64,000 bases of DNA, taken from an uncultured Verrucomicrobiae bacterium. Its GTDB lineage: Bacteria; Verrucomicrobiota; Verrucomicrobiia; Limisphaerales; JAFGQR01. Below the pieces are notes generated by a model. That model searched no databases. It was given only the letters and a program-made list of their open reading frames with translations, and was not told where the DNA came from. The DNA is taken from assembly GCA_963788655.1 (NCBI GenBank), contig CAWBHS010000064.1, positions 8,982 to 72,981 on the forward strand. Reading direction: 5' to 3'. Positions 35,549 through 64,000 of the stretch are shown here, in pieces. Position numbers and translations under genes: made by a program. Positions within the stretch are counted from its first letter, which is position 1. Each line of letters starts with the position of its first letter.

Positions 35549-38500
35549 TTAGGGCGGGTTCACTGGGGGCGTCAGAACCTCTTCTTCAAGTTGCCGGAGG
35601 GTGACGGAGTCCGGAAATACCACCGGGGGGTTGGTGGTGCCATCGAAAGCGCCCCAAACGAAACCGCCTAGCGTCGTCGTGCTGCTTTCATCCAGAAAGA
35701 AAGGTGTCTGGTTCTCGTAATAGGGCAATTGATCGGAAAAACGCAGCCGGATGGGGGGGCGAATCACCCCCGGACCAAACTGCGCCGCCTGCCCATTAAT
35801 CGCATCGTTATTCTCCCAATTACCGGTTCCGCTGCGCAGGTTGAGCACCGGCGTCAAGTTATTGACCAGTCCGAGATCCTCAGCCAATAGCAGAATGTCG
35901 GGCTCCCCCACGATCCGCCGGACCACTTGGGAACGTTGCTGGTAGTTGGTAATGACATTTTCCACATACTGGTTCGTAAACGGTAAAAAGAACTGTCCGA
36001 TCAGCGAGTCGTACCGGTAGGTGACGTTCTCGAAATAGAGTTTGTCCACCCCCGGCCGGATATTGACGCTGTTAGTGGTGGTCTGGAACTCGACCGGATA
36101 CGCCGACGAATAAACGTTGGTCACAGAGGTGACGACAATCGGATTGGTGGTGCCGTAAATATTGGTGCCGCCGGCGTTCGTGCTGACCCCATAATACCGC
36201 TGCACCGGGTACGCGGCGAAGACATATCCCGTACCGTAAGTGACGAGTTGTTCGTTGGTGTAGCTGACCAGGTTGGTGGAGGTCACGTTGGTGCCGGTTA
36301 CATTGGTGCCGACAACGTTCGTCCCCAGGAATGCGGGTTGCAGAATGTTGGTGAACTCGAGGTAATTCGTCAGGAGGGTGGAAATCAATTGGTAGCCCAC
36401 CAGGTTGGTGGGAATGATGTAAATGCTCCCGTTGACGAAATTGCTTTGATACGCCTGGTTGACCACACTGGTTTGCACAGTACCTGGGGCACCAAAAGCA
36501 GGCGGATAGACTTTGATCAACTGATGGTTGACCGGGCTGCTGGTGAAGAACGTGTTGGTGATGACATTCCCGTAGGTGTGATAGTAGTTGGTCACTAATA
36601 TGTTAGTGACCACCGGCACCGAAGCCATGATCAGGGTACCCGCCGGCGCATAGGGCGGGTTGGTCAGGTAGGTCAAATAATTGGTGAACGCCTCGGTTGA
36701 CAGCGTGTAGTAGCTCGAGTTGATGATCAGGTCCGGGTAAATGGTCTGCATTGCCGCCGGGGAATTGGTTTTCGAAATCGCATTGAACTCGGCCAGGTTG
36801 GTCGTGAACACCGGCACTGGCGAATTGGTATCGACAAAATAACCCAGGTCGATGGTGGCCAAATTGGTGACCGGGACCACGTTGGTCAACAGATCCTCGA
36901 TGAACTCGTAGCCATAGAGGGCGGGGGGCACAATATAGACGTTGCCATAGCCCTGGCCGACCGCGGCAAAGACCTCGGCATCGGGGGCGCCCAGCAGGTT
37001 GGGCACGGTGGGGTCCAGGCCGCCGTCAGGATTGAGCCGGGCAAAATTTGTGCGGCCATTTCCGACGCCGTTGGTGACCGCGAACACCCCGCCAACCAGT
37101 AATGCTCCATCCCAGTTCAAACCGATCGTGTTGACATGCGCCGTAGCCGACGCCTGGAAATTGGTGGCGCGAAAACCGGGATCCAAACTGCCGTCGTGAT
37201 TCAAGCGGGCCAGCAGGGAGCGCTGGGTGCCGTTGACGTTGCCAAAACTGCCGCCAATAACGATTTGTCCCTGCTTATTGGTGATCACGGCATTGACCGC
37301 CGCGCTGACAAAGGCGGTAAAATTGGTGTCCACGCTGCCGTCCCCATTCAACCGCGCAAGGTGGCTTCGTGACAGCCCGTTAACGTCGGTGAAATCACCA
37401 CCGATCAGCACTTGGCCCGTTTCTTGAAGCGCCATGGATTTGACGGTTGCGTTGGCCGCCGCGACGAAATTCGGGTCGAGCGTCCCATCCGCATTCAACC
37501 GCGCGAGGTTGGTGCGCGCCCCGTTGTTAACCGTGGTAAAAGCGCCGCCGATCAGCACCTGTCCGTCTCCTTGCACGGCCACCGTATGGACCGCTCCGTT
37601 CGCCGAGGTCACAAAATCGGTATCCACACTGCCATCAGCATTCAGGCGGGCGATGCCAGCTCGCGGCAGACCATTGACAGTAGCAAACTCTCCTCCTGTC
37701 AGCAGCTTGCCATCGGCTTGCACCGCAATCGCCGAAACCGGTTGATCCACCAGCGGCAAAAAGAGCACGTCCACACTGCCGTCCAAATTGAGCCGCGCCA
37801 GATGAGGCCGGTCCATGCCATTGACCTGCGTAAAGTCGCCGCCGACCAGCACCTTGCCATCCGGTTGCACCGCGAGGGCGTGGACGGGGCCGTTGACATT
37901 GGGAGTGAAGTTGGTGTCGAAGGTTCCGTTGCCATTGAGCCGGAGCAGATTCGCCAACGGATCCGTGAAGGACCCCCCCACCAGCAACTTCACCCCGGAT
38001 AAGTTGGTCAGCAGGTTGTCGAAGGTGTAATCGTAATAGGCCAGGATGTTGGTCGTGAGGTTGGTGGAGACGAATTGCGACGCCGAAACAGGCTGCGCCG
38101 GAGCGTTCGAGAAGTAATACAGCACGTTGGTCACCACCTGCCGTTCCAAGATGGTTGAATTGGTTCCCGCGATGACCAGGTTCGTGTAGAGCGATAACAG
38201 CTCGGTGGAAGTATTGGTTGTGTGGTGGGTGTTGAAGATGAACTGCTCGAGGTCAATGTTCGTCAGCAACAGCGGAACGTCAGCCCGGTTCGTGATCGCC
38301 ACCAAGCTGCCGGGCAGGATGCGTTCGGCGGCCTGGTTACCCGGCCGGTACAGGAATCGCAAGCCGCCCACGTCATCGCGCGTTAACCCAATCCAGAATT
38401 GGCCCGTGCCGGAGGCAAAACTGGAAACCGGCGCCGGATTGCCGTTGGCCAAGGAAATGGTGTCGAGGCTCCGTTCAATGGCATCGGCGTAATTCTGCGG

Positions 38501-39094
38501 CGCAATGGGCTCCCTGATGTCGTAGCCGTACAGTGAGCCATTGACGTAGCTCGAAGGGGCCCAAGTCACCGGATCGTAGTTCAGTTTGATGACCGTGTAG
38601 TTGGTGTAAGTGACGCCGCCGATGGTTTCCGTGTTCCGCCCGCGCAGAGCCCAGGTCCAGCGAACCGCATCCGCCAAGCCCATCTGTTCGGTCATCATCT
38701 CCAAGATTTGCGATTTGAGATCCAGGATGCCCAGCGCGGAGGCCCGGTAATTCTGGCGCAGCGCGTCGGTCTGGGGGAATTCGGTCAGGTTGGCGCTCAT
38801 TTGCGATGCCGGGGGCAGCGCGTTCAGAATGGCAAAAGCTTTGTCCGCCTCATCCATGCCTCGCGTCCCAAAATACTTCAGGAACGAGGCATCCACAGCA
38901 TAGTAAATATTGGTGACGTTCCAACGGTACCCTTCGGTGAAAGTCATCGGGCCGCCGATATCGCCGGGCAGGTCGTAACCCAGCGCGGTCACCTGCCATG
39001 TCTTGTTGGTCCCAATCAACGAAAAGGCTTGCGCCCCACCCGCCGTGGCCAACACCAGCGATACCAGCAACAGTTGTTTAATCAATCGCATCAT
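35549..39094 (-). CDS. Secreted protein with N-terminal matrixin/metzincin-like domain lacking HExxH, TN-rich stalk and delta-60 propeller
   Basis: 1181-aa ORF; signal peptide ending GGAQA. YRWNVTNIYY, EMMTEQMGL and GLTRDDVGGLRFLY resemble matrixin landmarks. Seven or so delta-60-type repeats. C-terminal GFVWGAFDGTTNPPVVFP. Confidence 0.75.
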   Translation of the reverse strand: MMRLIKQLLLVSLVLATAGGAQAFSLIGTNKTWQVTALGYDLPGDIGGPMTFTEGYRWNVTNIYYAVDASFLKYFGTRGMDEADKAFAILNALPPASQMSANLTEFPQTDALRQNYRASALGILDLKSQILEMMTEQMGLADAVRWTWALRGRNTETIGGVTYTNYTVIKLNYDPVTWAPSSYVNGSLYGYDIREPIAPQNYADAIERSLDTISLANGNPAPVSSFASGTGQFWIGLTRDDVGGLRFLYRPGNQAAERILPGSLVAITNRADVPLLLTNIDLEQFIFNTHHTTNTSTELLSLYTNLVIAGTNSTILERQVVTNVLYYFSNAPAQPVSASQFVSTNLTTNILAYYDYTFDNLLTNLSGVKLLVGGSFTDPLANLLRLNGNGTFDTNFTPNVNGPVHALAVQPDGKVLVGGDFTQVNGMDRPHLARLNLDGSVDVLFLPLVDQPVSAIAVQADGKLLTGGEFATVNGLPRAGIARLNADGSVDTDFVTSANGAVHTVAVQGDGQVLIGGAFTTVNNGARTNLARLNADGTLDPNFVAAANATVKSMALQETGQVLIGGDFTDVNGLSRSHLARLNGDGSVDTNFTAFVSAAVNAVITNKQGQIVIGGSFGNVNGTQRSLLARLNHDGSLDPGFRATNFQASATAHVNTIGLNWDGALLVGGVFAVTNGVGNGRTNFARLNPDGGLDPTVPNLLGAPDAEVFAAVGQGYGNVYIVPPALYGYEFIEDLLTNVVPVTNLATIDLGYFVDTNSPVPVFTTNLAEFNAISKTNSPAAMQTIYPDLIINSSYYTLSTEAFTNYLTYLTNPPYAPAGTLIMASVPVVTNILVTNYYHTYGNVITNTFFTSSPVNHQLIKVYPPAFGAPGTVQTSVVNQAYQSNFVNGSIYIIPTNLVGYQLISTLLTNYLEFTNILQPAFLGTNVVGTNVTGTNVTSTNLVSYTNEQLVTYGTGYVFAAYPVQRYYGVSTNAGGTNIYGTTNPIVVTSVTNVYSSAYPVEFQTTTNSVNIRPGVDKLYFENVTYRYDSLIGQFFLPFTNQYVENVITNYQQRSQVVRRIVGEPDILLLAEDLGLVNNLTPVLNLRSGTGNWENNDAINGQAAQFGPGVIRPPIRLRFSDQLPYYENQTPFFLDESSTTTLGGFVWGAFDGTTNPPVVFPDSVTLRQLEEEVLTPPVNPP

Positions 39095-42564: not shown

Positions 42565-45408
42565 TTACCAGACTTTGTTCTGGTCAGGTACGGATTGTTT
42601 CGCAAAAGGCATTTCCTCTTCGGAGTGGACCCGGTTGCCGGCCGGATCAATGATGGTCGGGGTGACGAAGATGATGAGATTCTTCTTCTTCGTCAGCGCG
42701 GATTCACTGCGGAACAACCGGCCCACGAGCGGCAAGTCTCCCAGCAACGGCACCTTGTCTTTGGTCTTCTGCACGTTCTCGGAGATCAACCCGCCGAGCA
42801 CCACGGTCTGGCCGTCCCACACCACCGCGCTGGTCACCACCTGGCGCAATTGGAACTGCGGCAGCGGAGTTGGTTGCGTCAAGGCGTTGGCAATCGCCCC
42901 GCCGCTGACCGACTGCGCCTGGGCGGCGAAGATTTGCGCCGTTTCAAAATCATAACCAATGAAATCGCGCACGGTCGGGATGATGGTCATTTGGACCGTA
43001 TATCCGTCCGCGCAGACGTAGGGGACCACGTCAAGCACCGGTCCCAACTCGATGGGTTCGGCAATGGGTTGAATGATGGTGCCCACGCCGCCGCCACCGG
43101 TCGTCGTGCCGACGGTGCTCACGCTGCTGCCGCCTGATGTTTGGTTGATGGACAGGTCGGTCACCACGTACTGCACATTGGCCACTTTGATTTGGGCCTG
43201 CCGTCCGCTCTGCGTGGTTATCTTCGGCGCCACCAATACATCGACACCCTGGCGTTGCTCGAGGGCCTTGATGACGACTTTGAATTGGGGATCCGTCAAG
43301 ATGCCGGTATAGGAAAATATGGCCGGCGCGCTGTTCCGCAGTCCGGAAGTTAGAATGCTGTCCGTCGAACTCGGGTTCACCAGCGTCGAGGCCGCGCCCG
43401 AAACCGCATTGGCGGGTTGGCCGGGGAACGACCCGACCGGATTCGCCTGCGTGGACCGTCCATTCATGGAAGGCTGGGTACCACCTGACGCCGCCGTGTT
43501 GCCGCCAATGATGACGTTGCCAAGGTACCAGTCAAAGCCCAGTGCCCGGTTGTCGTTCTGGTTCACTTCCGCAAACTTGGATTCCACGGTCAGTTGCGGC
43601 GGGGACATGTTGAGCACTTGCAGGGCCTGTTCGATGATGTCCAAGTCTTGCAACGTGGCGCGCACCATCAGCATGCCGAGCCGGTCGTTGAAATAGATAT
43701 TCTTGGGCGGTTCCAAGTCCACGCCACACGTAGTGAAGAAATCCCTTACCACCGTAACCACGTTCTGCATGGGCGTCACGGACGTCAGATAATCGATCCC
43801 GCCGCCGCCGGTTTGCCCGGTCGTTCCAGTGCCCGTGCCGCCCTGACCGGTTCTTCCCTGCGTGCGACCGCCTTGGCGTCCGCCACTGCCAGTCAGACTG
43901 ACGCCGACGTATTCCGACTGGCCGCCACCACCGTAGCCACCGCCGCCGTAGCCGCCACCGCCGCCGCCGTAGCCGCCACCACCGCCGCCGTAACCGCCGC
44001 CGCCGTAGCCGCCGCCGCCGCCGCGCCCACCATAACCGCCGCGGCTGCCGCCGCCGTAACCGCCGCTGCCGCCGTAACCGCCGCCGCCACCGTAACCGCC
44101 GCCGCCGCCGCCGCCGGTCGTGCCGAATTGATACGCGGACACGCCCTGGAGGCCTTGGGCGAACGTATTCGGATCAATCCTGAAAAACCGGTTGTACAAC
44201 GGTGGCGTTTCCGTGGTTTTGAACGAAATAAGAACATACGCGTCGTCCACCGAATACTTGATGGGCTTGTTGGCCACGGTGACGATGGCATCCAGCGCCT
44301 GCCGCAAGGTCACATCGCGAATCCCCGGTTTAAGTTTGACCAGCACGGTGTCAATATTCAAGGGTTCGGCGAGCGAAGGAATGGGCAAACCGCTGGCGGG
44401 ATCAATGACCTCTTCGGTCGTGGTGGCCGGGGGATCGGCATTCTCGCTGAGGATAAAATTGAGGCCTTTCTTCTCCGGATCTCGCTTCAACGCATCATCG
44501 CTCAGTTGCGCGATCACTTCCTTGAGCGGAATCTCATCGTATTCCAACTGGTCGATGCGAATGCGATCCAATTTCTCATAAATAGCAGCCCGCGCACTGC
44601 TGGTACGGATGTAATTGGTGCGCGCGTAGGGATTGGGCTCCGGTAATTGTTGTCGTTGGATTTGTTCGCTCCAGGCCTGACCTACTTCCATGATTTTGCC
44701 CTGGGACCAGCCTTCCCGAACGATGGTGGATTTGCGGTATTGTTTTTCCATGACCAAGCCCAGGTAATAAATCGCCCCGCGATTCAACGGGTCCCCTTTG
44801 ATTGCTTCCCGCAACTTGGCTTCCGCCTGGTCATATTCCCCCGCTTCATAAAGCAGCTTGCCGTCCTGCACCAACTTGTCCACCGCGATCTTTCCTTCCA
44901 TGATTTTGGGGATTTGGTTGATGGTTTCCTGGTCCGGCCGGCGGGCTTCGACCTCGAACCAGTGTTGATAAACCTTGTTGGTCACCGAACGGGCTTCGGG
45001 GTTGCCGGGCGCCACGCGTAACACGGCAAACGCCTGGTTGGTGGCTTGGATGAAATCCTGGCGGCGGTAGGCTTGCTCGGCCAGAACGTTGCGCACCGCA
45101 ATGATGCCGTTGACCGCTTCCTGCCGCACCGGGCCCACCTCGTTGCCAATCTTCCGGATCAGCGCATAACACTCATCATAAACGGCGGCCGCCGCGTAGA
45201 AGGATCCCTCCCGCTGCAGCGCCTGGGCCTGGACCAGTTTATTGGTCAGTTGCACGGTCATTTCCTGGCGCCGCACCGCTTCCGCGATGGCGTCCGTCAC
45301 CGCGCCCGCCCCCGTCGTGGGGCTCGGTGCTGGATTCTGATTCTGGGCCAGCGCGGAACCTAACCACAGCGGGGCCAGGGCACAGCATACTATCAAGGCT
45401 CTAATCAT
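42565..45408 (-). CDS. Secretin (GspD/PilQ family, Amuc_1098-like) with N-terminal TPR region and Gly/Tyr-rich insert
   Basis: 947 aa; signal peptide; TPR-like helices; N3 domain FNDRLGMLMVRATLQDLDIIEQAL; QLTVESKFAEV; VVWDGQTVVLGGLISE...DKVPLLGDLPLVGRLFRSE...NLIIFVTPTII. Confidence 0.93.
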   Translation of the reverse strand: MIRALIVCCALAPLWLGSALAQNQNPAPSPTTGAGAVTDAIAEAVRRQEMTVQLTNKLVQAQALQREGSFYAAAAVYDECYALIRKIGNEVGPVRQEAVNGIIAVRNVLAEQAYRRQDFIQATNQAFAVLRVAPGNPEARSVTNKVYQHWFEVEARRPDQETINQIPKIMEGKIAVDKLVQDGKLLYEAGEYDQAEAKLREAIKGDPLNRGAIYYLGLVMEKQYRKSTIVREGWSQGKIMEVGQAWSEQIQRQQLPEPNPYARTNYIRTSSARAAIYEKLDRIRIDQLEYDEIPLKEVIAQLSDDALKRDPEKKGLNFILSENADPPATTTEEVIDPASGLPIPSLAEPLNIDTVLVKLKPGIRDVTLRQALDAIVTVANKPIKYSVDDAYVLISFKTTETPPLYNRFFRIDPNTFAQGLQGVSAYQFGTTGGGGGGGYGGGGGYGGSGGYGGGSRGGYGGRGGGGGYGGGGYGGGGGGYGGGGGGYGGGGYGGGGQSEYVGVSLTGSGGRQGGRTQGRTGQGGTGTGTTGQTGGGGIDYLTSVTPMQNVVTVVRDFFTTCGVDLEPPKNIYFNDRLGMLMVRATLQDLDIIEQALQVLNMSPPQLTVESKFAEVNQNDNRALGFDWYLGNVIIGGNTAASGGTQPSMNGRSTQANPVGSFPGQPANAVSGAASTLVNPSSTDSILTSGLRNSAPAIFSYTGILTDPQFKVVIKALEQRQGVDVLVAPKITTQSGRQAQIKVANVQYVVTDLSINQTSGGSSVSTVGTTTGGGGVGTIIQPIAEPIELGPVLDVVPYVCADGYTVQMTIIPTVRDFIGYDFETAQIFAAQAQSVSGGAIANALTQPTPLPQFQLRQVVTSAVVWDGQTVVLGGLISENVQKTKDKVPLLGDLPLVGRLFRSESALTKKKNLIIFVTPTIIDPAGNRVHSEEEMPFAKQSVPDQNKVW

Positions 45409-45434
45409 AGCTATTCAGTCGTTGGGCACAAAGA

Positions 45435-46256
45435 TCAAGAAGGGAGGGTCACGACTTCTGCCAGCCGCACCGTGTACTTTTTGTTGTTTGAGCTGGCCGA
45501 CAATACTACTTCGTCGGCGCTGATGGCAACGATTTTGTAGTCTTCGCCGGCAAAGTGCAGCTCGGCGCCGACGCGCACGTTGCGAAACTCCTTCCCCTCC
45601 GGAGGATACTTAAGATCCGCTTCATAACCTTCCGTGCGGACGTACGGTTTGTCCGGCGCCACGGAAACCGTTTCCTGCGTGTCGGGCAGCAGCAGGATCA
45701 ATTCATCCGGCGCTTTCGGATCGCCCTTCACATCCAGCAAGGCATAGAACTCATTGGTTTGTCCCTTGGTGGCATAACTGGGCCGCTTGCGTCGCAGCAG
45801 GGGATTTTCGGCGGCTTCCCGGGTGATGCCCAAGTAGTAGCCCCCGTTGCCGGTCGCCCGCTCGAGCGATAGGATGTAGTTCAACGGTTGCGCCTTGGTG
45901 AATTCCATCACGGCGGGGCCGACTTCGCCGCCCGTTTCGATCTTGATCAAATCACCATTGGGCTGGCGTTGCCATTTGACCGGGTTGAACAGGTTGTGGG
46001 GCAGCGAAAAATCCACGCTTAGCGGCTGCGCGGCCACCTTGAGCGCGGCTTGATGCGGTGCCATGTTCACCGGGGGCAGCGCTTTGTTGGGCTGGCGGCT
46101 GATCCCCACGAGGTAGGTTTGGATTTTGTCCGCCTCTTTCTGGCGCACGTTGTTCAGCTTCCACACGGTCGTCCCCAGTCCCAGCAGGGCCAGGATGAGA
46201 ATCAGCTTCTCATAATGGTTGCGACCGGCATCAATAAGTCTGCGAAGATGTTCCAT
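45435..46256 (-). CDS. Membrane-anchored pilus/secretion assembly protein (Amuc_1099-like)
   Basis: 273 aa; N-terminal HYEKLILILALLGL transmembrane segment; lies between the PilO-like gene and the secretin, as in the Akkermansia Amuc_1098-1101 cassette. Confidence 0.6.
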   Translation of the reverse strand: MEHLRRLIDAGRNHYEKLILILALLGLGTTVWKLNNVRQKEADKIQTYLVGISRQPNKALPPVNMAPHQAALKVAAQPLSVDFSLPHNLFNPVKWQRQPNGDLIKIETGGEVGPAVMEFTKAQPLNYILSLERATGNGGYYLGITREAAENPLLRRKRPSYATKGQTNEFYALLDVKGDPKAPDELILLLPDTQETVSVAPDKPYVRTEGYEADLKYPPEGKEFRNVRVGAELHFAGEDYKIVAISADEVVLSASSNNKKYTVRLAEVVTLPS

Positions 46257-46266
46257 GCCAAACTGG

Positions 46267-47271
46267 TTACGGGGTGGGAATCGGCTTCATGACGTCAATC
46301 ACGAGCGTCACGCGGCACAGCGATTCATCCAAGACGGTTACCAACACCCCCTCTTCCGCCGTGCCGGGCGGTCGGGGCGGTAGGGGCGCGGCACGGCGCA
46401 GTTGCGCCGCGCGCGAATAGGCGCCGGGCCGCAGCCGCGAAACCGGCGCATTGCCGGCTCCCCGGCGCACGGGCCGCCGGTTGGGAGGCGGGAGCGTGCC
46501 GGATCGATTGGGCGGGGCGCCGGGAGCGGCGGAAATATCCAGTTTGTTGGGCTCGGCCTCGTGGTCCAGCGCGATCAAACGAGGGGCGAGAAATTGCTCC
46601 GCGCTACACAGCTTGTCCAACACCTGGGCCAGCTCGGTGCTGAACGCATAGAACGTAACTTCATAGGGGAAGGCCGCCATGCCCAGGTCCGGTTTTTTGA
46701 CGATCGGCAATTCATGGCAATACGGGCTGGTGCCGGCGTCGTCCGCGGTCTTGGCCCGTTTGATACTGAGCAGGGCATTGACGTTCGCCGCGCACAATTG
46801 GGCGGTAATCAAGCGCACGTCCGCCAGTTGCTCGGCCAGTTCCGGAAAGCTGCCGGGCGCGAATTTGGCTTTGTTCATCTGTTCCTCGAAGGAGAAGGCA
46901 AAGTGGTCGCTCAGCTTCACGCTGTGTTCCTTCGCCAAGTTATGCAGGTAGAAAAGATTGCTGTTGAGCACCGTCACGAAATCCACGCCCTGGACCTTGG
47001 CATACGGGATCGGGGTAAAATACTTTTGCTCCTGGGAAATGACCTTACTCAACTGGTTCAAGCTGTTTCTGGCCTGATCGATGTTGGCTTGGCTGTGAGA
47101 CGGATTGGCTTTAAGCAAGCCTTCCAATTGGTGTTTGGAAGCATTGATCTCCTCGTCCACACTCGAATTTTTGCCAATTCCGCTCCACAGATAAAAGCCC
47201 CCACAGGCCAGCAGAAGAATGGCCGCCAGGCCAAACACCGCCCAAAACAAATTTCGTCGAAACCATTGCAT
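46267..47271 (-). CDS. PilO/Amuc_1100-like inner-membrane-anchored protein
   Basis: 334 aa; N-terminal transmembrane segment plus coiled coil; FAFSFEE and PYEVTFYAFSTELAQVLDKL motifs; downstream of PilM/N. Confidence 0.65.
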   Translation of the reverse strand: MQWFRRNLFWAVFGLAAILLLACGGFYLWSGIGKNSSVDEEINASKHQLEGLLKANPSHSQANIDQARNSLNQLSKVISQEQKYFTPIPYAKVQGVDFVTVLNSNLFYLHNLAKEHSVKLSDHFAFSFEEQMNKAKFAPGSFPELAEQLADVRLITAQLCAANVNALLSIKRAKTADDAGTSPYCHELPIVKKPDLGMAAFPYEVTFYAFSTELAQVLDKLCSAEQFLAPRLIALDHEAEPNKLDISAAPGAPPNRSGTLPPPNRRPVRRGAGNAPVSRLRPGAYSRAAQLRRAAPLPPRPPGTAEEGVLVTVLDESLCRVTLVIDVMKPIPTP

Positions 47272-47280
47272 GGTTAAATC

Positions 47281-49177
47281 CTAGTTTACTTGCACGGGCC
47301 GCTTCAGTTTCAACATGATTTCAAAGTCGAACGTCAACTCGTTGGGATCCGGGTTGAACGTGCCGCTTTCCAGCGTGGTTTCTTTGGGGTCCACCCACTC
47401 GGTCATTCGCTGGAGCGCCTTGGCGACCATGTCGGCCATCTTGGTGTTTTCCGCGGGATTATGGAGATTCATCGCCTGAAACACCAATTTCACGTGGGAC
47501 AACTCCACGCCCGCGCCGGGATTGTTAGGGTTTCCGTACGGCTGATTCAAACCCGGTTGCGCCCGGGGGGGCATCGGGCGCGGCCCTCGTCCGCCCGGCC
47601 GACCCGGAGCGGGTGCGAATGAATTACGTCCCCGTCTGCCCGCATTCGGTTGGCCAGGAGCCGGAGCCTCAACTTTGACCGAGCCCGGGATAATGCCATC
47701 CGGTAATACCGGTTGAAATCGTTCAATCCACACGCCGGTCTTGGTTCCGCTCAACTGGGCTTCTTTGGCCTTTTCCACCCCCCGCAAGGCCGTCCGAACG
47801 TCGGAAAAAAACTTGGGCCAGTAGTAACGGTCCAGAATCCAGCCCGTGTAGGTATCCGCCCGAATCTCCGTGGCAAACAATTGGTTGGTTGCCGATTTCA
47901 AGCGGTTGCCCAATTGTTGCAGCGGCCCCATTTTGCTCTGGATTTGTTCCAAGGCCTCGCGCTTTTGATCCGCCACGTTGGCGTAAAACCAGCCGGCGGC
48001 GAAAATCGCCAGAACGATGCACGCCGCCGAAGCAATAAAGTAGGGTTTCTTGGTTTCGAGTTCCTGACGGTGGAGCGAACTCTTGGGCATCAGGTTCAAC
48101 TCGACCGGGCAATGGGCCAGATTGCGCAGCCCCAGGCCTACCACTTCCCCCAAGGTATGGACGCCTTTGGCCAATTCCTCGCGGTCCAGGTTCTCAGCAA
48201 TCTGCACGTTGCGGAACGGATTGAAATACTCGACCACTCCGGGGCAGATTCAGCTTCTCGGAAAAGAACTGCGCCGTATAAGGCATGACCGAAGCGCCGC
48301 CCGACAGATACAGGCGTTCCGGCGTCGAGCCGCCCTGTTGGCCGCGATAAAATTGGATCGTCTGGTTGACCTGAATGTGCAGCCGCGTCAGCACTTGCCG
48401 GGCGATTTTCGAGATCGCGGCCTGGTGCGGATTCTCCGGGTCCTCGTAAGCCCCGCCCAAACTGACAAACCCTTGCTCGATTTTGAGCTGTTCGGCGTCC
48501 GTCAAGGAGAGTTTGGCCTCGCGGGCAAACTCCTGGGTGATGGAATTGGCCCCGATATTGATGCCGCGCGAATAGACCTTGCCGTTTTCAAAAAACAACA
48601 GGTTGCTGGTCTTCGCCCCGATATCCAGCAGCATCGTGCAGCCCTCGATGTCGCCGTAATTGTAACGAAAGGCATTGCACAAGGCCGCGGGGGACACATC
48701 GACCAGTTGCAGGCGCAAGCCGGTGTTCTCGGCCACCCGCGAAAGCCCTTCGACCACGTCGGGTTTGATGGCCACCAGCAAGACCTCCAGTTCGCCGGTG
48801 GGATTGGCGCCCAGAATCTGGTAGTCCCAAACGACTTCTTCCAGCGGGAAAGGGACGTTCTGCTGCGCCTCGTATTGGATGATCTGGGTAACTTTCGAAG
48901 TATCGACCGGCGGGAGTTTGACGAACTTGGAGAAGACGTGGAACCCCGGCGCGCACAAGTTAAGGTCCTTGGAGGTGAAGGTGCCTTCGGCCAACAGCTC
49001 GGCCAGGGTTCTTTCCATGGCCGCTTCCCGGGCGCTTTCCTGCATCCCCTCCGCCCCCAAAGGCCTGAAGCCGTAGTTCTTGAGCTGCAATCCACCGTCT
49101 TCGTTCAGTTCGAATTCGGCCAATTTCAGCGTCGCCGCTCCGAAATCAACGGCCAGGAATGACTTTGAATTTAGCAC
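47281..49177 (-). CDS. pilM: PilM-PilN fusion (Amuc_1101-like type IV pilus assembly protein); frameshift at ~48243
   Basis: LAVDFGAATLKLAEF, IQYEAQQNVPFPLEEVVWDYQ, LLDIGAKTSN, LYLSGGAS. Removing one C from CCCC restores KLNLPGVVEYFNPF. Then VGLGLR...ELNLMP (PilN INLLP-like) and a transmembrane segment. Confidence 0.88.
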
Positions 49178-59013: not shown

Positions 59014-59068
59014 TTCGGAAATCGGATTTCGGATTTCTTTCGGGTCTCGGATTTCGGCCTTCGGATTT
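59014..59068. repeat. Heptamer tandem repeat (TTCGGAT-like) just downstream of the kinase stop
   Basis: ttcggaa atcggat ttcggat ttct ttcgggt ctcggat ttcggcc ttcggat. Confidence 0.7.
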
Positions 59069-60561
59069 TACACCGGTCCGCTGCCGCTCGCCGACGCCAG
59101 CCCAACCACCGGCGACCTGGCGGCCCGCCAAGCCGCACGCACGAGGAAGAAATCAACAATCAAACTCAGCAACAATCCAAGGGCCATGGTGAATTGCATC
59201 AGTTGCCATTCAGGCAGGCGCGCTTGAGCAATCCCATGCACCAAGGCATTACTCACGGAAAGAAGGCGGCATCCACGACCAACACGGAAAAACAACGCAT
59301 CGGCCAAGGCCAGTGGCAGCCCGATGATCCGCCCTCCGGAATGCCGAATGTCACTGATGCCAATCAAGCCCAGGATAGTCGTCCCAAACGGTGAGGTGAT
59401 CCCGAGTGGCAACAGTGTAAATCCCAGCAGCGTCTGCCACCACGCCGGACCCGGAGGCGATGCACCTGACTCAACCACCCGTACCTCCTGGACGGTAACA
59501 GTGAGAAAGAGGGTGATCAGCCCTATTGCCGCCCACCCCGCGCCCATGATGGCTTTGCGCGAGAATCGCAGGTGCATTACGGAGCCAACGCGGTTCGTTG
59601 ATCCGCCGGTCGCATCCTTGGTAGCGCTGATCGTTTCCACTGCCGTCTTCACCTCGCTGGCCTGCTGATAACGCCGCTCGGGACTTTTCTCCAACGCATG
59701 GAGCACCACTTCATCCAAGCGCACATCCACTTGCACTTTGTGCGACGGGGGCTCGAACCGGCCCAGCGGCAGTTCGCCCGTGAGCATTTCGTAGAAGACC
59801 ACGCCGAGCGAATAGATGTCCGCCCGATGGTCCACCGACTCCGGCCGTTCGAGTTGCTCGGGCGCCATGTACTTGGGCGTGCCCATGACGAAGCCCGGAC
59901 TGGTCAAGGTGACATTGCCCGGCTCGCGGCCGACCAGTTTGGCGAGGCCGAAATCGGCAATCTTCACGCGGCCTTTTTTGTCAAGCAGCAGGTTCTCCGG
60001 CTTGATGTCGCGGTGAACAATCCCTTCCTCGTGCGCGAATTGCAGCGCCTCGCAAATCTTCGGCACAATGGCCAGCGCTTCCTTGGGGGTAATCCAGCCG
60101 CCTTCGAGCATCTGCCGCAAGTTCTGGCCGTCCACGAATTCCATGAGGAAGTAGTAATAACCGCCCGCCTGCCCAAAGTCATAAACCGCCACAATGTTCG
60201 GATGGTTCAGCCGGGCCAGCGAACGGGCTTCGCGAGCGAACCGCTCGGCAAACGCCGGATCGCGGGCCGCCGACGGCAGCATCAATTTCAGCGCCACCCA
60301 CCGGTCGAGTTGTTTTTGCCGGGCTTTATAAACGACTCCCATGCCGCCCTGACCCAGCAACTCGATGATGTCCAATTGCGGAAAATGCGGCGCCAACTCC
60401 GCGGGCGTGGGCGGCACGAAACTGTCCGCGGCCGACTGGCCAACCCCGGATTGCGCTTCAGTCTTCAACCCTTGCTTCAGCAGACACTGCGGGCACAGCC
60501 CTTGCGGGGCGTCCGCCGCCACCGGCTTGCCACATCCCACACAAACTTTTGTCGTGTCCAT
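59068..60561 (-). CDS. Hanks-type Ser/Thr protein kinase with N-terminal Cys cluster and C-terminal membrane domain
   Basis: CVGC...GLCPQC; LGQGGMGVVY, VALK, HRDIKPEN, DFGLAK, GTPKYMAPEQ, DIYSLG; 3-4 C-terminal transmembrane segments. Confidence 0.93.
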   Translation of the reverse strand: MDTTKVCVGCGKPVAADAPQGLCPQCLLKQGLKTEAQSGVGQSAADSFVPPTPAELAPHFPQLDIIELLGQGGMGVVYKARQKQLDRWVALKLMLPSAARDPAFAERFAREARSLARLNHPNIVAVYDFGQAGGYYYFLMEFVDGQNLRQMLEGGWITPKEALAIVPKICEALQFAHEEGIVHRDIKPENLLLDKKGRVKIADFGLAKLVGREPGNVTLTSPGFVMGTPKYMAPEQLERPESVDHRADIYSLGVVFYEMLTGELPLGRFEPPSHKVQVDVRLDEVVLHALEKSPERRYQQASEVKTAVETISATKDATGGSTNRVGSVMHLRFSRKAIMGAGWAAIGLITLFLTVTVQEVRVVESGASPPGPAWWQTLLGFTLLPLGITSPFGTTILGLIGISDIRHSGGRIIGLPLALADALFFRVGRGCRLLSVSNALVHGIAQARLPEWQLMQFTMALGLLLSLIVDFFLVRAAWRAARSPVVGLASASGSGPV

Positions 60562-60631
60562 AATTTTCTCTTTCACCCGGTACAGAAGAAATGCCCAATC
60601 CAAGGTTACGCGAAAACATTTTAGCCAGTTC

Positions 60632-61372
60632 TTAATCCGCCAGGGCCGCAAACAAGTGGCGGATCTCTTCGTCCACGTCAGCCGGTGAGGCAACCGTCTG
60701 GGCGATTTCCGCCCGCAGCAATTCCCGATACCGCTGACGCAACCGATGCACGGCCACCTTGACCGCGCCCTCGGTGAGCCCCAGTTGCGTCGCCAATTGC
60801 GCGTAAGGGGCGGATCGGGCGTCGGTCGTGAGCGTGATCTTCAGCGTGTCGAACTGCGCCCCTTTTCCCGCGGCCACCTGTTCCGCGCGCAACTTCTCCA
60901 ACACTTCGTCCAACAGGGTCAACGCCCAGCGGCGCTCGAACAGTTTTTCCGGCGTCAACTCGTGCGCCGGCTCCAATCCGTAACGGGTTTCCGCCAGGCC
61001 GGTGTCGAGGGGAACATGGTCCACCGCCCCGCCGCGCTTCTGGGCGCGGGCTTTGTCCCATTCGTTGGCCAGAAAGTGCTTGAGCGCGGTGAGCAGGAAC
61101 GAGCGGAACCGACCTTTCTCCGGGCCGACTTCAGCCAGGTAATGCTTCTCTAACAGCCGGACGAAAAAGGCCTGCGTCAAATCCTGCGCATCCGGCGGTG
61201 AATTGCCCAGGCGCCGGACAAACGCATACAGCGGATACCAATAGGTGCGGCAGAGGGTTTCCAACGCGGCCTGTGCCGCCGGCGATTCGCCCGCCTGCGC
61301 CTTCAAGACCACCGTCCATTGCGTCGTGACAAAATGGCTGGGCGGCGGTGCGTTGGTATCGGACTCGGACAT
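60632..61372 (-). CDS. ECF sigma factor of the Ser/Thr-kinase-associated type
   Basis: FVTTQWTVV, YWYPLYAFVRR, DAQDLTQAFF, RFRSFLL, YAQLATQLGLTEGAVKVAVHRLRQRY; directly upstream of the kinase. Confidence 0.9.
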   Translation of the reverse strand: MSESDTNAPPPSHFVTTQWTVVLKAQAGESPAAQAALETLCRTYWYPLYAFVRRLGNSPPDAQDLTQAFFVRLLEKHYLAEVGPEKGRFRSFLLTALKHFLANEWDKARAQKRGGAVDHVPLDTGLAETRYGLEPAHELTPEKLFERRWALTLLDEVLEKLRAEQVAAGKGAQFDTLKITLTTDARSAPYAQLATQLGLTEGAVKVAVHRLRQRYRELLRAEIAQTVASPADVDEEIRHLFAALAD

Positions 61373-61433: not shown

Positions 61434-61550
61434 GTAGGACAGGCGTCTCGCCTGTCCCGGACTTTCAAACAACGTCCAATTCTGCAACGAACCGCCAAGA
61501 ACCAGCGGGCGCGTGTTGGACTTTCGAGACAGCCGGGACGGCTGTCCTAC
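61434..61550. repeat. GTAG-type REP doublet (REPIN-like)
   Basis: GTAGGACAGGCG-TCT-CGCCTGTC (from 61434) and an inverted copy GTAGGACAGCCG-TCC-CGGCTGTC (61550-61528) with a compensatory stem change. Confidence 0.8.
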
Positions 61551-61793: not shown

Positions 61794-62351
61794 ATGGCCG
61801 TGGCGGAACCAGACAAATCCAGCGCGAAAGCCCCGCGATCTGAATCGCTGGAAACGTTGTTCCATGCCCTGGAATCGCCCCTGTTGAGCTACGCTCGGCG
61901 ACTCCTCAACGATTCGGCTGCGGCCGAAGATATCGTGCAAGACGCTTTCATTAAATTACATGCCCAGTTTGACGCGGTCCGCGAACCCCGCCGTTGGCTG
62001 TATCGCACGGTGCATAACCTGGCGCTCAACCACCAGCGGCGCGCCGGCAAGATCGTGCCCCTCCACCCGGAGACGGAATCCGGCGAGCCCGCGGCCGCCG
62101 ATCCCGCCGACCCCCAGCCGTTGCCCGACGAACAAATCGCCCGCTGGGAAGGCATCGGCCAGGTGCGCCTGAGCCTCGAAGCGCTGGATGCCCGCAGCCG
62201 CGAATTGGTCCGGCTGAAGTTCAATGATGACTTGTCCTACAAGCAAATCAGCGAACGCACCGGCCTGAAAGTCGGCCACGTCGGCTACCTGTTGCACCAT
62301 GCGCTCAAAGCCATTGCCGCGGAACTGGCCAAAACCGGAGTAGTGCCATGA
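61794..62351 (+). CDS. ECF RNA polymerase sigma-70 factor
   Basis: AAEDIVQDAF, WLYRTVHNLALN, LSYKQISERTGLKVGHVGYLLH; ATGA overlap with the next gene. Confidence 0.9.
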   Translation: MAVAEPDKSSAKAPRSESLETLFHALESPLLSYARRLLNDSAAAEDIVQDAFIKLHAQFDAVREPRRWLYRTVHNLALNHQRRAGKIVPLHPETESGEPAAADPADPQPLPDEQIARWEGIGQVRLSLEALDARSRELVRLKFNDDLSYKQISERTGLKVGHVGYLLHHALKAIAAELAKTGVVP

Positions 62352-64000
62352 ATCCTGATTTACCCTCATCGCCTCGCGAGGAATTGGAAGCGCGTCTGAC
62401 CGCGCTCCTGCTGGGCGAACTGAATGCCACGGAAGCAGCGGAAGTGCGCCAGGCCATCGAAAACGATCCCGAACTGGCCCGCCTCCACGAACGGCTCAAG
62501 CAAACCATCGGCCTATTGCGCGAAGCCGCCGCCAGCACCGAAGAACCCGCCGCGGAACCGCACGCCCCGCTGCAATTGTCGGCTGCGAAACGTCAGCAGT
62601 TGCTCACACAATTCAAGACTCCGGCGGATCAGCCACAGCGCGAGCCAGCGCGGCGCCGAAGTCGTTGGTACATTCCGGCGAGCATTGCGGCGATCCTCGT
62701 CGCCATGTTGGCGATTGCGTCGCTAATGGTGTCCAATTCGCGCATGGCCATATTCGGGCGAGCGAAGCTCACGTCGGCAACGGCGACCGGAGAGTCAGGA
62801 GCAGACTTGCGAATGCCTGATCTACGGGGGATAAACTGCGGACGGTCGCTGCAAATTCGCCAAGCCAGCCCGCGGAGGCTCCAGTTGAATTGGCTCTTCG
62901 CGACAAATCCGTCCACTGGCGGTGGTCTCACCGTCGAGAAATATCTGAAGGAAACCGCCTCTGCCGCCGCGGCTACCCGTCCTGCTGAGGCTGAAAACAA
63001 TGTCTATTTGCCAACTGGTGAAGGGGAAGATTCGGAGGAAGGCGTTGCCTTGCATCCCCAGCGCCTGACCAACATTCCCGGCAGCACTCCGCCGGCGGGC
63101 GACGCTGGCGGCGCGCCCCAAATCGCGGACGCCGGCGATACGCCTGGACATAACTGGTATTCTGGTCTGACTCGCGACGATGCCGGCGGCCTCAAGATAT
63201 CTCAAAGGCGTTGCCCCCCAAGACGGTCGCGCGAATGCACCTGCTCCCGCCAAGCCGGAACCCGCGACGAAACTTCCGCAGTTGGCGGCGGGCACCCGGG
63301 GCACCGAGTTCTTGAGTTTCGTCCTGGAGTTACAATGGCGACCAATCCGGGCGAGCTGGCCTGCCCATCCAATTACCCACGCCTACCCTCAAGGGCAGTC
63401 CGGACGAGTTGCCCAAAGGTCCCAACATCGAGCCCATTGAGGAAACCATGAAGGCCGGCGCCTACTGGGCACGGGGCAAACCTGCCGCCGACACTTGGGC
63501 CGAGCAGACTGCCTCGAGAGCAACCAGCGAACGCCTGAGCGAATCTCGCCGAGGTGAAGGGCCAGTTAACGCCGTCCAATTCAGCGCGGATGGGTTACAG
63601 ACCGCGACAGCATCTAAAGACCAAACTGCTCAAGTCTGGGACTTGGAAGGCGGCAAACCGCTGGGCCAGTTGCAAGCATCAGCGCAAAGAGCGCCCGCAG
63701 TCACACCTCCACCCGCACCTCCACGACCAGCGGTGGCCACGGCTCCTGTGGTTATCAACGAAATCATGCATCACCCGGCGGAGATCCCACCGGCAGCGCC
63801 ACCACCAACGTTTGCCCCTCCACCCGCGACGCTTGGCGATGTGGTAGAAGGCCGGAAGGGATTCATGTGGGGGTCGTTTGACGGATCGACAAGTAGTCCT
63901 GTCGTGCTGCCAACTTCTCCGGGAACCACCGCAACGGCGGCGGGAAACAATCTCGCGCATTTTAGATTCTTCGATGATAATTTCGAAGTCTCGGCGGCCG
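62348..64000 (+). CDS. Putative membrane-anchored anti-sigma factor with a long Pro/Ala-rich extracytoplasmic region containing a mosaic of motif fragments; partial, frameshifts ~63195 and ~63313
   Basis: N-terminus EELEARLTALLLGELNATEAAEVRQAIENDPEL (anti-sigma-domain-like); transmembrane segment WYIPASIAAILVAMLAIASLMV; translationally coupled to the ECF gene; an open frame runs from 63316 to the window end. Confidence 0.75.

Follow-up and report, generated by a model that had tools for sequence, protein, structure and literature searches.

Results

An ECF sigma factor gene and an anti-sigma factor gene

This study concerns a gene at the end of a 64,000-nucleotide (nt) stretch of DNA from an uncultured Verrucomicrobiae bacterium (contig CAWBHS010000064.1 of assembly GCA_963788655.1). 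The whole stretch was analysed and is called the window here; the G+C content of the genome is 60%. The gene runs on the plus strand from position 62348 to 64000. It very probably encodes a single-pass anti-sigma factor of the extracytoplasmic function (ECF) type, and the region that drew our attention is its periplasmic tether, a hypervariable, Pro/Ala-rich sequence with islands of 11-45 amino acids (aa) that are near-consensus to conserved peptides found elsewhere. An earlier note on this DNA had described the region as fragments of unrelated domains strung on disordered linkers, and all of the peptides that it quoted were found in the places and frames it had assigned to them.

Directly upstream lies an ECF sigma factor gene (61794 to 62351, plus strand, 185 aa). 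Its product matched the Pfam families Sigma70_r2 (E 9.4e-15) and Sigma70_r4_2 (E 1.8e-10) as well as TIGR02937 (E 6.1e-26). The stop codon of the sigma factor gene and the start codon of the anti-sigma factor gene overlap as ATGA at 62348-62351, and the two genes are co-transcribed. A sigma factor homologue ends between -60 and +200 nt from the anti-sigma start in 61 of 74 related loci, counting those with 600 nt or more of upstream sequence.

The anti-sigma factor gene begins with a frame-0 open reading frame (ORF) of 367 aa and then changes frame. The first 106 residues (62348 to 62665, plus strand, frame 0) form a cytoplasmic anti-sigma domain that matched NF052375 (E 4.5e-8) and aligned with relatives (alignment A1). 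This is followed by a single transmembrane helix, WYIPASIAAILVAMLAIASLMV (62666 to 62731, plus strand), which was read from the sequence and aligns with the hydrophobic segment of relatives. With aa 1-281 as the query, phmmer returned 951 homologues at E<=1e-3 and 673 at E<=1e-10 from a set of 1.84 billion representative proteins, among them matches at E 5.6e-34 to 1e-21 to proteins of 1000-1800 aa. That is also the usual length of the homologues, which almost always aligned over aa 1 to ~130 only. The nearest relatives are metagenome-assembled Verrucomicrobiota throughout, many of them labelled Limisphaerales or Pedosphaera. Minus-strand ORFs at 62822-63304 and 63679-63999 also cover the region; they were set aside because homology and codon signal sit in the plus-strand frames.

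The layout in relatives is an anti-sigma domain, one transmembrane helix, a hypervariable, low-complexity periplasmic tether of 400-1400 aa and then a von Willebrand factor A (vWA) head of the vWF_A/VWA/YfbK_C kind. Five relatives that were read whole share this one layout, and their C-terminal module consists of vWF_A (PF12450), VWA and YfbK_C (PF12034, DUF3520). Pfam found vWF_A/VWA in 33/37 representatives and in 40/41 locus ORFs. The head spans 443 aa, with a mean column identity of 81% over 22 sequences. Complete ORFs are present in 65 of the 79 related loci; in the other 14 the ORF extends past the end of the locus. Of the complete ORFs, 64/65 measure 796-1770 aa, the sole short one being L010 with 557 aa. 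A vWF_A-type motif was found by pattern in 60 of the 65, and L028 and L030 have VWA/YfbK_C by Pfam. The window ends at 64000 inside the tether, before any vWA module. A search with the frame-2 product of the tether revealed no continuation of the gene, as the matching proteins of 379-2000 aa were multi-repeat WD40 proteins only and the range of 118-378 aa yielded one weak WD40 match.

Peptide cassettes in the tether

The frame-0 part of the tether (62732 to 63196, plus strand) is favoured by codon usage in that frame, and P, A, G, S and T account for 49% of its residues. It includes NVYLP (62999-63013, plus strand), a sequence of family type; judged by eye, relatives have (I/V)(Y/F)LP at the equivalent place. 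The frame-2 product comprises 228 aa, of which 52% are P, A, G, S or T. AlphaFold2, run on this single sequence, gave it a mean predicted local distance difference test (pLDDT) of 43.6 with 0 residues at 70 or above, which is weak evidence for disorder, obtained by a check that the earlier note had proposed. The tether is probably disordered. Apart from one WD40 unit, Pfam detected no domain in the tether region.

Each tether peptide was run alone against Pfam at E<=10. In addition, cassette hidden Markov models (HMMs) were built from other tethers of the family with the window left out. For this purpose, 186 tethers were cut from 223 distinct family proteins, keeping those of at least 80 aa (median length 588 aa); together with the pieces from the window they form a set of 189. 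Thresholds were taken from 5 shuffles of each of the 189 tethers.

Cassette B, LPIQLPTPTLKGSPDELPKGPNIEPIEE (LPIQLPTPTLKGSPDELPKGPNIEP, LPIQLP...; 63361 to 63444, plus strand), had been proposed to be a conserved N-terminal peptide; we find it to be a conserved tether motif of the family. By blastx, it is 74% identical over 38 aa to P0078 (E 9e-13), and the P0078 and window tethers have nothing in common apart from this stretch. The same cassette was found by blastx in P0066, P0072, P0057, P0108, P0069, L018, L001 and L059. It scored 49.5 bits against a shuffle maximum of 9.6 and occurs in 11/189 tethers, the window included. A search of a protein atlas gave no usable match to it.

A single WD40 repeat had also been predicted, and it was confirmed. 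The unit LSESRRGEGPVNAVQFSADGLQTATASKDQTAQVWDLEGGKPLGQ (63535 to 63669, plus strand) covers exactly one full repeat period. It matched PF00400 with an E-value of 1.6e-5 and 25.7 bits, falling short of the gathering score (27) by 1.3 bits. In a comparison with 300 shuffled sequences it scored 58.5 bits, and the best of these reached 26.9. Its identity to single repeats of the multi-repeat WD40 proteins P0001, P0002 and P0039 is 55-62%, with 62% over 45 aa for the repeats of P0001. No tandem WD40 repeats able to close a propeller are present, and the unit sits between cassette B and a Pro/Ala run. None of 78 relatives had a WD40 match by Pfam and none of 228 family proteins by blastx. Read in frame 2, the unit has a codon score close to zero. 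A pair of imperfect 19-nt direct repeats (63464-63482 and 63641-63659; 79% identity, starts 177 nt apart) was also noted. The first repeat is 52 nt upstream of the WD40 unit, and the second falls within the last 29 nt of the unit; they could be a trace of its insertion or a product of chance.

Cassette C, PVVINEIMHHP (63745 to 63777, plus strand), has Pro/Ala runs on both sides. It scored 16.7 bits against a shuffle maximum of 3.1 and is present in 6/189 tethers, namely P0076 and L004 (which are near-identical), P0084, P0140, L005 and the window. In the four relatives with the strict pattern (P0076, L004, L005 and P0140) it stands isolated, with nothing domain-like after it. The sequence VVINEIMY is the first strand of lamin-tail domains (LTD). 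Cassette C clearly recurs in the family, and its lamin-tail origin is putative; no Pfam family, LTD included, matched 63715-63801, and no LTD protein was found among the sequences assembled for this analysis.

Three other resemblances put forward in the earlier note did not hold up. AAGTRGTEF (63285 to 63311, plus strand), thought to be FecR-like, is a chance resemblance: no Pfam family, FecR included, matched 63240-63314, and the patterns TRGT.F and G.RGT.F occur in 0/186 family tethers. LGDVVEGRKGF (63832 to 63864, plus strand) had been compared with cytochrome c, and neither cytochrome c nor any other Pfam family matched 63817-63915. It is at most a degenerate remnant of a secretin-type LGDxPxxGxxF cassette (cassette A), and the HMM of that cassette gave it 0.1 bits (at PATLGDV); cassette A is not present in the window tether. 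The LamG-like reading of LAHFRFFDDNFE (63952 to 63987, plus strand) found no match to LamG or any other Pfam family for 63922-63999. By eye it weakly resembles the family cassette LRGFYDDNY, and the HMM of cassette F (RGFYDD) scored it at -1.2 bits. Of the six proposed resemblances, these three fail and a fourth, that to LTD, is tentative. When set against shuffled sequences, a comparison that the earlier note had itself suggested in terms of random peptides, the WD40 unit and cassettes B and C scored well above them.

Cassettes E and D resemble a family of secreted proteins

Two further cassettes, E and D, were not identified in the earlier note. Both lead to one gene of the same window, which encodes a secreted protein of 1181 aa (35552 to 39094, minus strand) with DUF5122 propeller repeats (Pfam E 2.7e-72). 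The N-terminal 270 residues of this protein define a family of 108 proteins, the named ones coming from Limisphaera or Limisphaerales. We refer to it as the source family. In the ORF at 35552-39094, the E motif is located at 38348-38398 and the D motif at 35612-35665 (minus strand).

Cassette E, NWYSGLTRDDAGGLK (63152 to 63196, plus strand), is a copy of the GLTRDDVGGLRYLY motif of this family and matches FWIGLTRDDVGGLR in the ORF at 35552-39094. The HMM from other tethers gave it 22.7 bits, with a shuffle maximum of 2.7. It also matched positions 235-249 of a 332-position profile of the source N-domain (E 0.003; 11.8 bits, where 500 shuffles gave at most 1.6). Cassette D, GFMWGSFDGSTSSPVVLP (63859 to 63912, plus strand), copies the near-C-terminal WGSFDGSTNAPVVYP motif. 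A tblastn search of the rest of the window matched it to GFVWGAFDGTTNPPVVFP at 35606-35665 (E 4.5e-5), and it corresponds to positions 141-162 of a 196-position profile of the source C-region (E 1.7e-7; 25.7 bits, where 500 shuffles gave at most 3.8). Cassette D is found in the tethers L075 and P0102 as well. The GLTRDDVGGLRYLY motif is present in 99/108 source-family proteins and the WGSFDGSTNAPVVYP motif in 67/108, and both are among the nearly invariant columns of the family. As judged from these alignments, cassettes E and D are near-consensus copies of the two best-conserved motifs of the source family.

These motifs belong to a folded protein in prediction. The model of a source-family homologue of 663 aa (P0207) has a mean pLDDT of 87.8 and a predicted template modelling score (pTM) of 0.78, and both motifs lie within blocks of pLDDT 82-96. 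Foldseek gave no PDB match to this fold at E<=0.001, with TM scores of ~0.1 or less. We had also considered a matrixin-like N-domain, based on an RW..TY start and an LSxDDIxGIQxLYG-like motif. This lead was unsupported, since Pfam returned nothing at E<=10 and a sequence profile search of the PDB only Ig-like matches at the C-terminus.

Neither the whole source N-domain (332 positions) nor the whole C-region (196 positions) is present in the window tether, where only pieces of 15 and 22 residues match. On sequence grounds, the tether does not belong to the source family but carries fragments of it, and 15-22 residues alone are not a domain. Across the family of anti-sigma factors, the source-family profiles matched tethers over just 15-88 positions, with eight loci at E<=1e-3 for the N-domain. 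Cassettes E and D occur together in 2 of the 3 tethers that bear D, while E is found in only 8/189.

One explanation for such fragments is that an ancestor carried whole folded domains in its tether (secretin N-domains, a domain like that of the source family, a propeller) and that only their conserved cores are still recognizable. The longer source-family fragments of L062 and L051 (58-88 profile positions) would fit such an erosion, as would the complete small domains that persist in some tethers (Secretin_N, GspD N0 and FliL). The arrangement of the fragments argues otherwise, however. In L075 (8001-11012), the tether has three separate source-family fragments within protein residues 271-539, NIGEEYRRNAP, MFGSYDGSTSAPVAF and LTKDDVAGLRY, which correspond to N-domain positions 47-64, C-region positions 136-163 and positions 238-260. 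Their order is unlike that of the source protein and unrelated low-complexity sequence lies between them. The spacing from E to D has collapsed to ~220 aa in the window tether, compared with ~900 aa in the ORF at 35552-39094. Moreover, neutral decay would not spare 10/11 motif residues while flank similarity is zero. We regard erosion of ancestral domains as very unlikely.

The cassettes recur across the family

The mosaic of cassettes is a family-wide property. An all-against-all short BLAST of the tethers yielded 67 groups of shared islands, and 12 cassette patterns were far above shuffled expectation. For example, the LGDxPxxGxxF pattern was found in 63/186 tethers (shuffled mean 0.02 hits) and the RGFYDD pattern in 15/186 (shuffled 0.00). 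By HMM, at least one of the 12 cassettes is present in 151/189 tethers, in dozens of combinations. Their order is partly variable, with counts of before versus after of 18 and 13 for A relative to H, 4 and 4 for B relative to A, and 16 and 8 for L relative to A; cassette I always comes first and G nearly always last. Thus, the comparison of orthologs called for by the earlier note came out as it had anticipated: relatives gain, lose and in part reorder cassettes, and their N-terminal domain is constant.

Shared islands include PVLGDxPxxGxLF, YDPYFIQTEFE and EAARIANAIAEAYRD (Wzz-like by eye), GVYSQNVVGYVNV, DPEW...NRFLGRYAY, RMDPxLMxRYGL, LRGFYDDNY, a TPR unit and a secretin-N-like unit; more broadly, islands of other members comprise a piece of the secretin domain and pseudopilin-like, Wzz-like, PATR and TPR sequences. 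PVLGDxPxxGxLF is an isolated piece of the Secretin domain (model positions ~121-161 of 169) that Pfam detected in 7/37 and 1/41 relatives. The corresponding cassette A (secretin, PF00263) is present in 91/189 tethers, and the window's own secretin scored 34.1 bits with its HMM. In alignment A3, the L, G and P of PVLGDxPxxG are invariant in 22/22 sequences and the flanks are unalignable. Whole small domains were found in some tethers, namely Secretin_N in P0063, L005, L028, L036 and L041 and GspD N0 in P0101 and L007.

Several side observations were made on these tethers. L039 (6485-10363) has a complete FliL domain at residues 639-730 (E 1.4e-9), and the L012 and L025 tethers contain passenger-associated transport repeats (PATR; E 1e-11 to 2e-13). 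Neighbouring ORFs in two loci (L047 3306-7199 and L039 11110-13143) bear a secretin-type cassette, with an RYGL-type one in addition in L047; these may be further mosaic proteins or true secretins. The NNLRQIDAAKQQWALENNK island lies directly after the transmembrane helix. In some members (P0064, P0091, P0094, P0120, P0137, P0193 and P0194) the transmembrane segment itself looks prepilin- or pseudopilin-like, with sequences such as FTLIELLVV and LLPALSKAK, and that of P0064 matched Pfam N_methyl (E 0.0011). Here, too, NNLRQIDAAKQQWALENNK comes next after the helix. The F is preceded, in the examples read, by a residue other than glycine, and the anti-sigma domain occupies the position of the prepilin leader. 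The NNLRQ cassette was counted in 33/189 tethers.

One alternative is a neutral spacer, in which length and flexibility suffice and illegitimate recombination inserts pieces that drift. It would account for the extreme variability of the tethers in length and sequence, for the 38/189 tethers that have none of the 12 cassettes and for a WD40 unit that is unique to the window copy and lies between imperfect direct repeats. It does not readily explain why the same cassettes are found near consensus in distant members, with flanks that cannot be aligned, or why invariant motif residues sit inside random flanks. Islands of motif within random flanks, recurrence with reordering and the co-occurrence of E and D argue against both pure debris and erosion. 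On balance, we consider a neutral spacer doubtful.

Frame changes in this copy

The reading frame of the window gene shifts twice (0 to 1 to 2) within 140 nt, between 63197 and 63336 on the plus strand, so that two +1 changes are needed: from frame 0 to 1 near 63197-63220 and from frame 1 to 2 near 63311-63336. Homology to relatives is in frame 0 up to 63196 and in frame 2 from ~63337. A codon-usage score, trained on twelve long ORFs of the window and applied in 75-nt segments, was best for frame 0 to ~63140, for frame 1 in segments starting at 63140-63290 and for frame 2 from 63320. Frame 0 stops at 63449-63451. Frame 2 has a stop at 63313-63315 and is then open from 63316 to the window end (228 codons). 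The frame-1 stretch (63198-63311) reads YLKGVAPQDGRANAPAPAKPEPATKLPQLAAGTRGTEF, and the stretch 63197-63336 had no match to any relative in a blastx search against 228 family proteins. Because of the homology and codon-usage results, two +1 frame changes are the best reading of the frames, in agreement with the two frameshifts across which the earlier note had translated. A single out-of-frame insert of 119 nt (63197-63315), coding-like in its own frame, would give the same picture. The idea that the frame-1 stretch is a diverged duplicate of 63020-63200 was rejected, since the local alignment score was 22 and shuffled sequences gave a mean of 17 and a maximum of 26.

No comparable break was seen in any of the 65 complete relatives. 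L010 was considered as a second frameshifted example and rejected, because its split lies at a run of N (a scaffold gap). Elsewhere in the window, ORFs of 2552, 1684, 3472 and 2699 aa are intact, and therefore indel errors are not general. Given the two frame changes within 140 nt and the end of the window before the vWA head, we conclude that this copy is either a pseudogene or the result of a local mis-assembly. A break confined to this copy, whether two frame changes or one 119-nt insert, would also fit the neutral-spacer explanation, which takes the window copy to be a decaying pseudogene. It was further observed that frame-2 codon scores are near zero or negative from 63500 to 63800, through the WD40 unit and the Pro/Ala runs. 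In this part many Pro/Ala codons end in A or T, and its composition is therefore atypical of the genome.

These features raise the question of whether the mosaic as such is a chimera that arose when a variable region of a metagenome bin was wrongly assembled. The two closely spaced frame changes in a window of otherwise long intact ORFs and the atypical codon scores are in favour of this. On the other hand, cassettes B, C, D and E recur in uninterrupted tethers of independent assemblies, which argues against chimerism. Frame 2 is open for all of its 228 codons through B, the WD40 unit, C and D, and a product identical to the 367-aa frame-0 product is present in the protein database (P0054). 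A chimeric origin of the mosaic is the least probable of the explanations that we considered.

Neighbouring genes

A Ser/Thr protein kinase gene with C-terminal membrane segments (59068-60564, minus strand; Pkinase E 4.1e-55) is immediately preceded by a second ECF-type sigma factor gene (60632-61372, minus strand; Sigma70_r2 E 1.5e-7). This pair is divergent from the sigma/anti-sigma pair, and it resembles the kinase-associated ECF type of Planctomycetes and Verrucomicrobia. The 420-nt gap between the divergent sigma factor genes contains two similar perfect palindromes at 61437-61457 and 61528-61546, which read GGACAGGCG-TCT-CGCCTGTCC and GACAGCC-GGGAC-GGCTGTC in the sequence.

The minus strand from 3 to 41025 holds a run of genes for giant secreted proteins (at least 2552, then 1684, 3472, 2699, 750, 241, 1181 and 640 aa), all with intact frames. 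These proteins carry DUF5122 propeller repeats, Calx-beta, DUF11, a fungalysin M36 peptidase domain and P-domains. At 42565-49177 (minus strand) is a secretin gene with N-terminal TPR (42568-45414; 947 aa; Secretin E 2.7e-34), then four ORFs that resemble the assembly platform of a pilus or secretion system by their position. The secretin of the window bears the VPLLGDLPLVGRLFRS motif that is copied in many tethers of the family.

Discussion

Our results lend support to the core idea of the earlier note, in which signature peptides of unrelated proteins are displayed on a disordered linker in a receptor that is coupled to an ECF sigma factor. The observation was partly confirmed, and the interpretation attached to it is partly supported. 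The explanation that we favour is that of a broken anti-sigma factor gene whose tether cassettes act, in the family, as tethered mimic peptides, or pseudo-clients. We would give this explanation as a whole a probability of about 0.45. That the cassettes are under selection and functional at all seems to us an even bet.

How such peptides might work can be sketched as follows. Each would be part of the structure in its folded source protein and permanently exposed on the tether. Periplasmic factors that bind these peptides in unfolded or unassembled envelope proteins would then also bind the tether. Candidate binders are a chaperone, a protease or an assembly machine, or the vWA head of the anti-sigma factor itself. 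As real, unassembled clients accumulate, they would compete for the binders and thereby change the protection of the tether. Altered protection could lead to regulated proteolysis of the anti-sigma factor and to release of the sigma factor. This competition mechanism in particular is tentative, and we consider it doubtful as stated. A broader version, which we think unlikely, is that the tethers are evolvable pseudo-client arrays in which buried signature peptides are captured from client genes, allowing one sigma factor to read whether any client fails to fold or assemble. Examples of such clients would be secretin, pseudopilin, chain-length determinant, the family of the ORF at 35552-39094 and propeller blades, with readout by competition for chaperones, assembly factors or the family's own vWA head. 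The window gene might then have been caught with a capture in progress, represented by the orphan WD40 blade and a gene-breaking, out-of-frame 119-nt insert.

A number of points weigh against the mimic-peptide explanation. Binding, cleavage and an effect on sigma activity are all hypothetical. This copy is interrupted and perhaps without any function, and its vWA head was not seen, as no continuation of the gene was found. Disorder was predicted from one sequence only. The WD40 unit, which none of 228 relatives shares, could be a one-off accident with atypical codon usage. No source-family member lies within 8 kilobases (kb) of the anti-sigma factor gene in 79 loci, and in the window the distance is 24 kb. 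Cassette counts are inflated by the shared ancestry of members. HMM detection also favours the most conserved positions of a domain, and therefore the picture in which only the signature peptide survives is partly one of ascertainment. A predicted complex of the 443-aa vWA/YfbK_C head (A2) with the secretin-type cassette segment (A3) had a score of 0.00, with controls not run, and speaks neither for nor against binding.

The cassettes could alternatively form an array of protease baits, as the earlier note had envisaged, with each one a cleavage site for a different foreign or periplasmic protease and any cut leading to intramembrane proteolysis and release of the sigma factor. Regulated proteolysis is the usual route by which single-pass anti-sigma factors are inactivated. 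The tether is exposed, probably disordered and wired to an ECF sigma factor, and the cassettes differ between relatives as a catalogue shaped by an arms race would. Nevertheless, the known sources are envelope and secreted families of the cell itself and a secretin motif, and not known recognition sites of proteases. A disordered Pro/Ala linker would be cleavable without any cassettes, and no linked protease gene is present in the window flank that was examined. The bait array strikes us as improbable; the computations made here do not separate it from the competition model.

The question is of wider interest since ECF sigma factors are a major bacterial signalling system whose input signal is unknown for most groups, including, as far as the available part of the classification goes, those with vWA/DUF3520 anti-sigma factors. 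If the cassettes are functional mimics, the sequence of a tether would name the proteins being watched, and the input signal could be read from the genome. Bacteria would then offer a case of sensing through peptide motifs borrowed by a disordered region, and of shuffling at the level of motifs rather than domains. Even as debris, the cassettes would make the family a useful record of short coding fragments that move between genes. A full-text literature search, which scarcely covered subscription journals, yielded no description of borrowed signature peptides on the tether of an anti-sigma factor.

Comparison with known systems

The Escherichia coli RseA/DegS system offers a precedent for peptides as reporters. 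There, C-terminal peptides of outer-membrane proteins, which are buried in the folded envelope proteins, signal folding stress to an ECF sigma factor pathway via regulated proteolysis of an anti-sigma factor with one transmembrane helix. Those peptides belong to the clients and are read by the PDZ domain of a protease, whereas the window gene has client-type copies on the anti-sigma factor itself; a DegS-like partner for it was not identified in our analysis. The integrated decoys of plant nucleotide-binding leucine-rich repeat receptors (NLRs) are whole folded domains of effector targets, and the bait region of alpha-2-macroglobulin is one stretch. By analogy, the window family may resemble both, as a receptor with pieces that imitate other proteins or with an exposed stretch open to many enzymes. 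Unlike either, its tether is a set of borrowed motifs, and their borrowed nature is established for E and D. Dma anti-sigma factors, as far as their published description was available, also reach across the periplasm towards the outer membrane. They span both membranes, presumably through a C-terminal outer-membrane domain, whereas members of the window family end in a soluble-type vWA/YfbK_C module and have a cassette-bearing tether.

The class of sigma/anti-sigma pair is not new and has already been catalogued as the ECF226/ECF289 type. In the section of the catalogue that was available, ECF226 and ECF289 are listed with anti-sigma factors at position +1 that have one transmembrane helix and bear a von Willebrand domain and DUF3520, with no function given there, and ECF226 is reported in Acidobacteria, Planctomycetes and Verrucomicrobia (Casas-Pastor et al. 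2021, PMC7826278). The window matches this description in having an ECF sigma factor gene directly upstream of a gene for an anti-sigma factor with an N-terminal domain and one transmembrane helix, and in relatives the anti-sigma factor ends in vWA and DUF3520. It departs from the entries in that section (PMC7826278) in its tether cassettes, which they do not mention, and in its interrupted reading frame; the sigma factor of the window was matched to generic ECF models only. RsgI of Bacillus subtilis is described, in the part of the report at hand, as sensing gaps in the peptidoglycan meshwork with an extracytoplasmic disordered region (Brunet et al. 2022, PMC9732909). It comes from another phylum with another envelope and sigma family, and that part of the report does not describe borrowed signature peptides (PMC9732909). 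Like the window family, however, RsgI is a single-pass anti-sigma factor with an extracytoplasmic disordered region, and in RsgI this region is the sensing part (PMC9732909).

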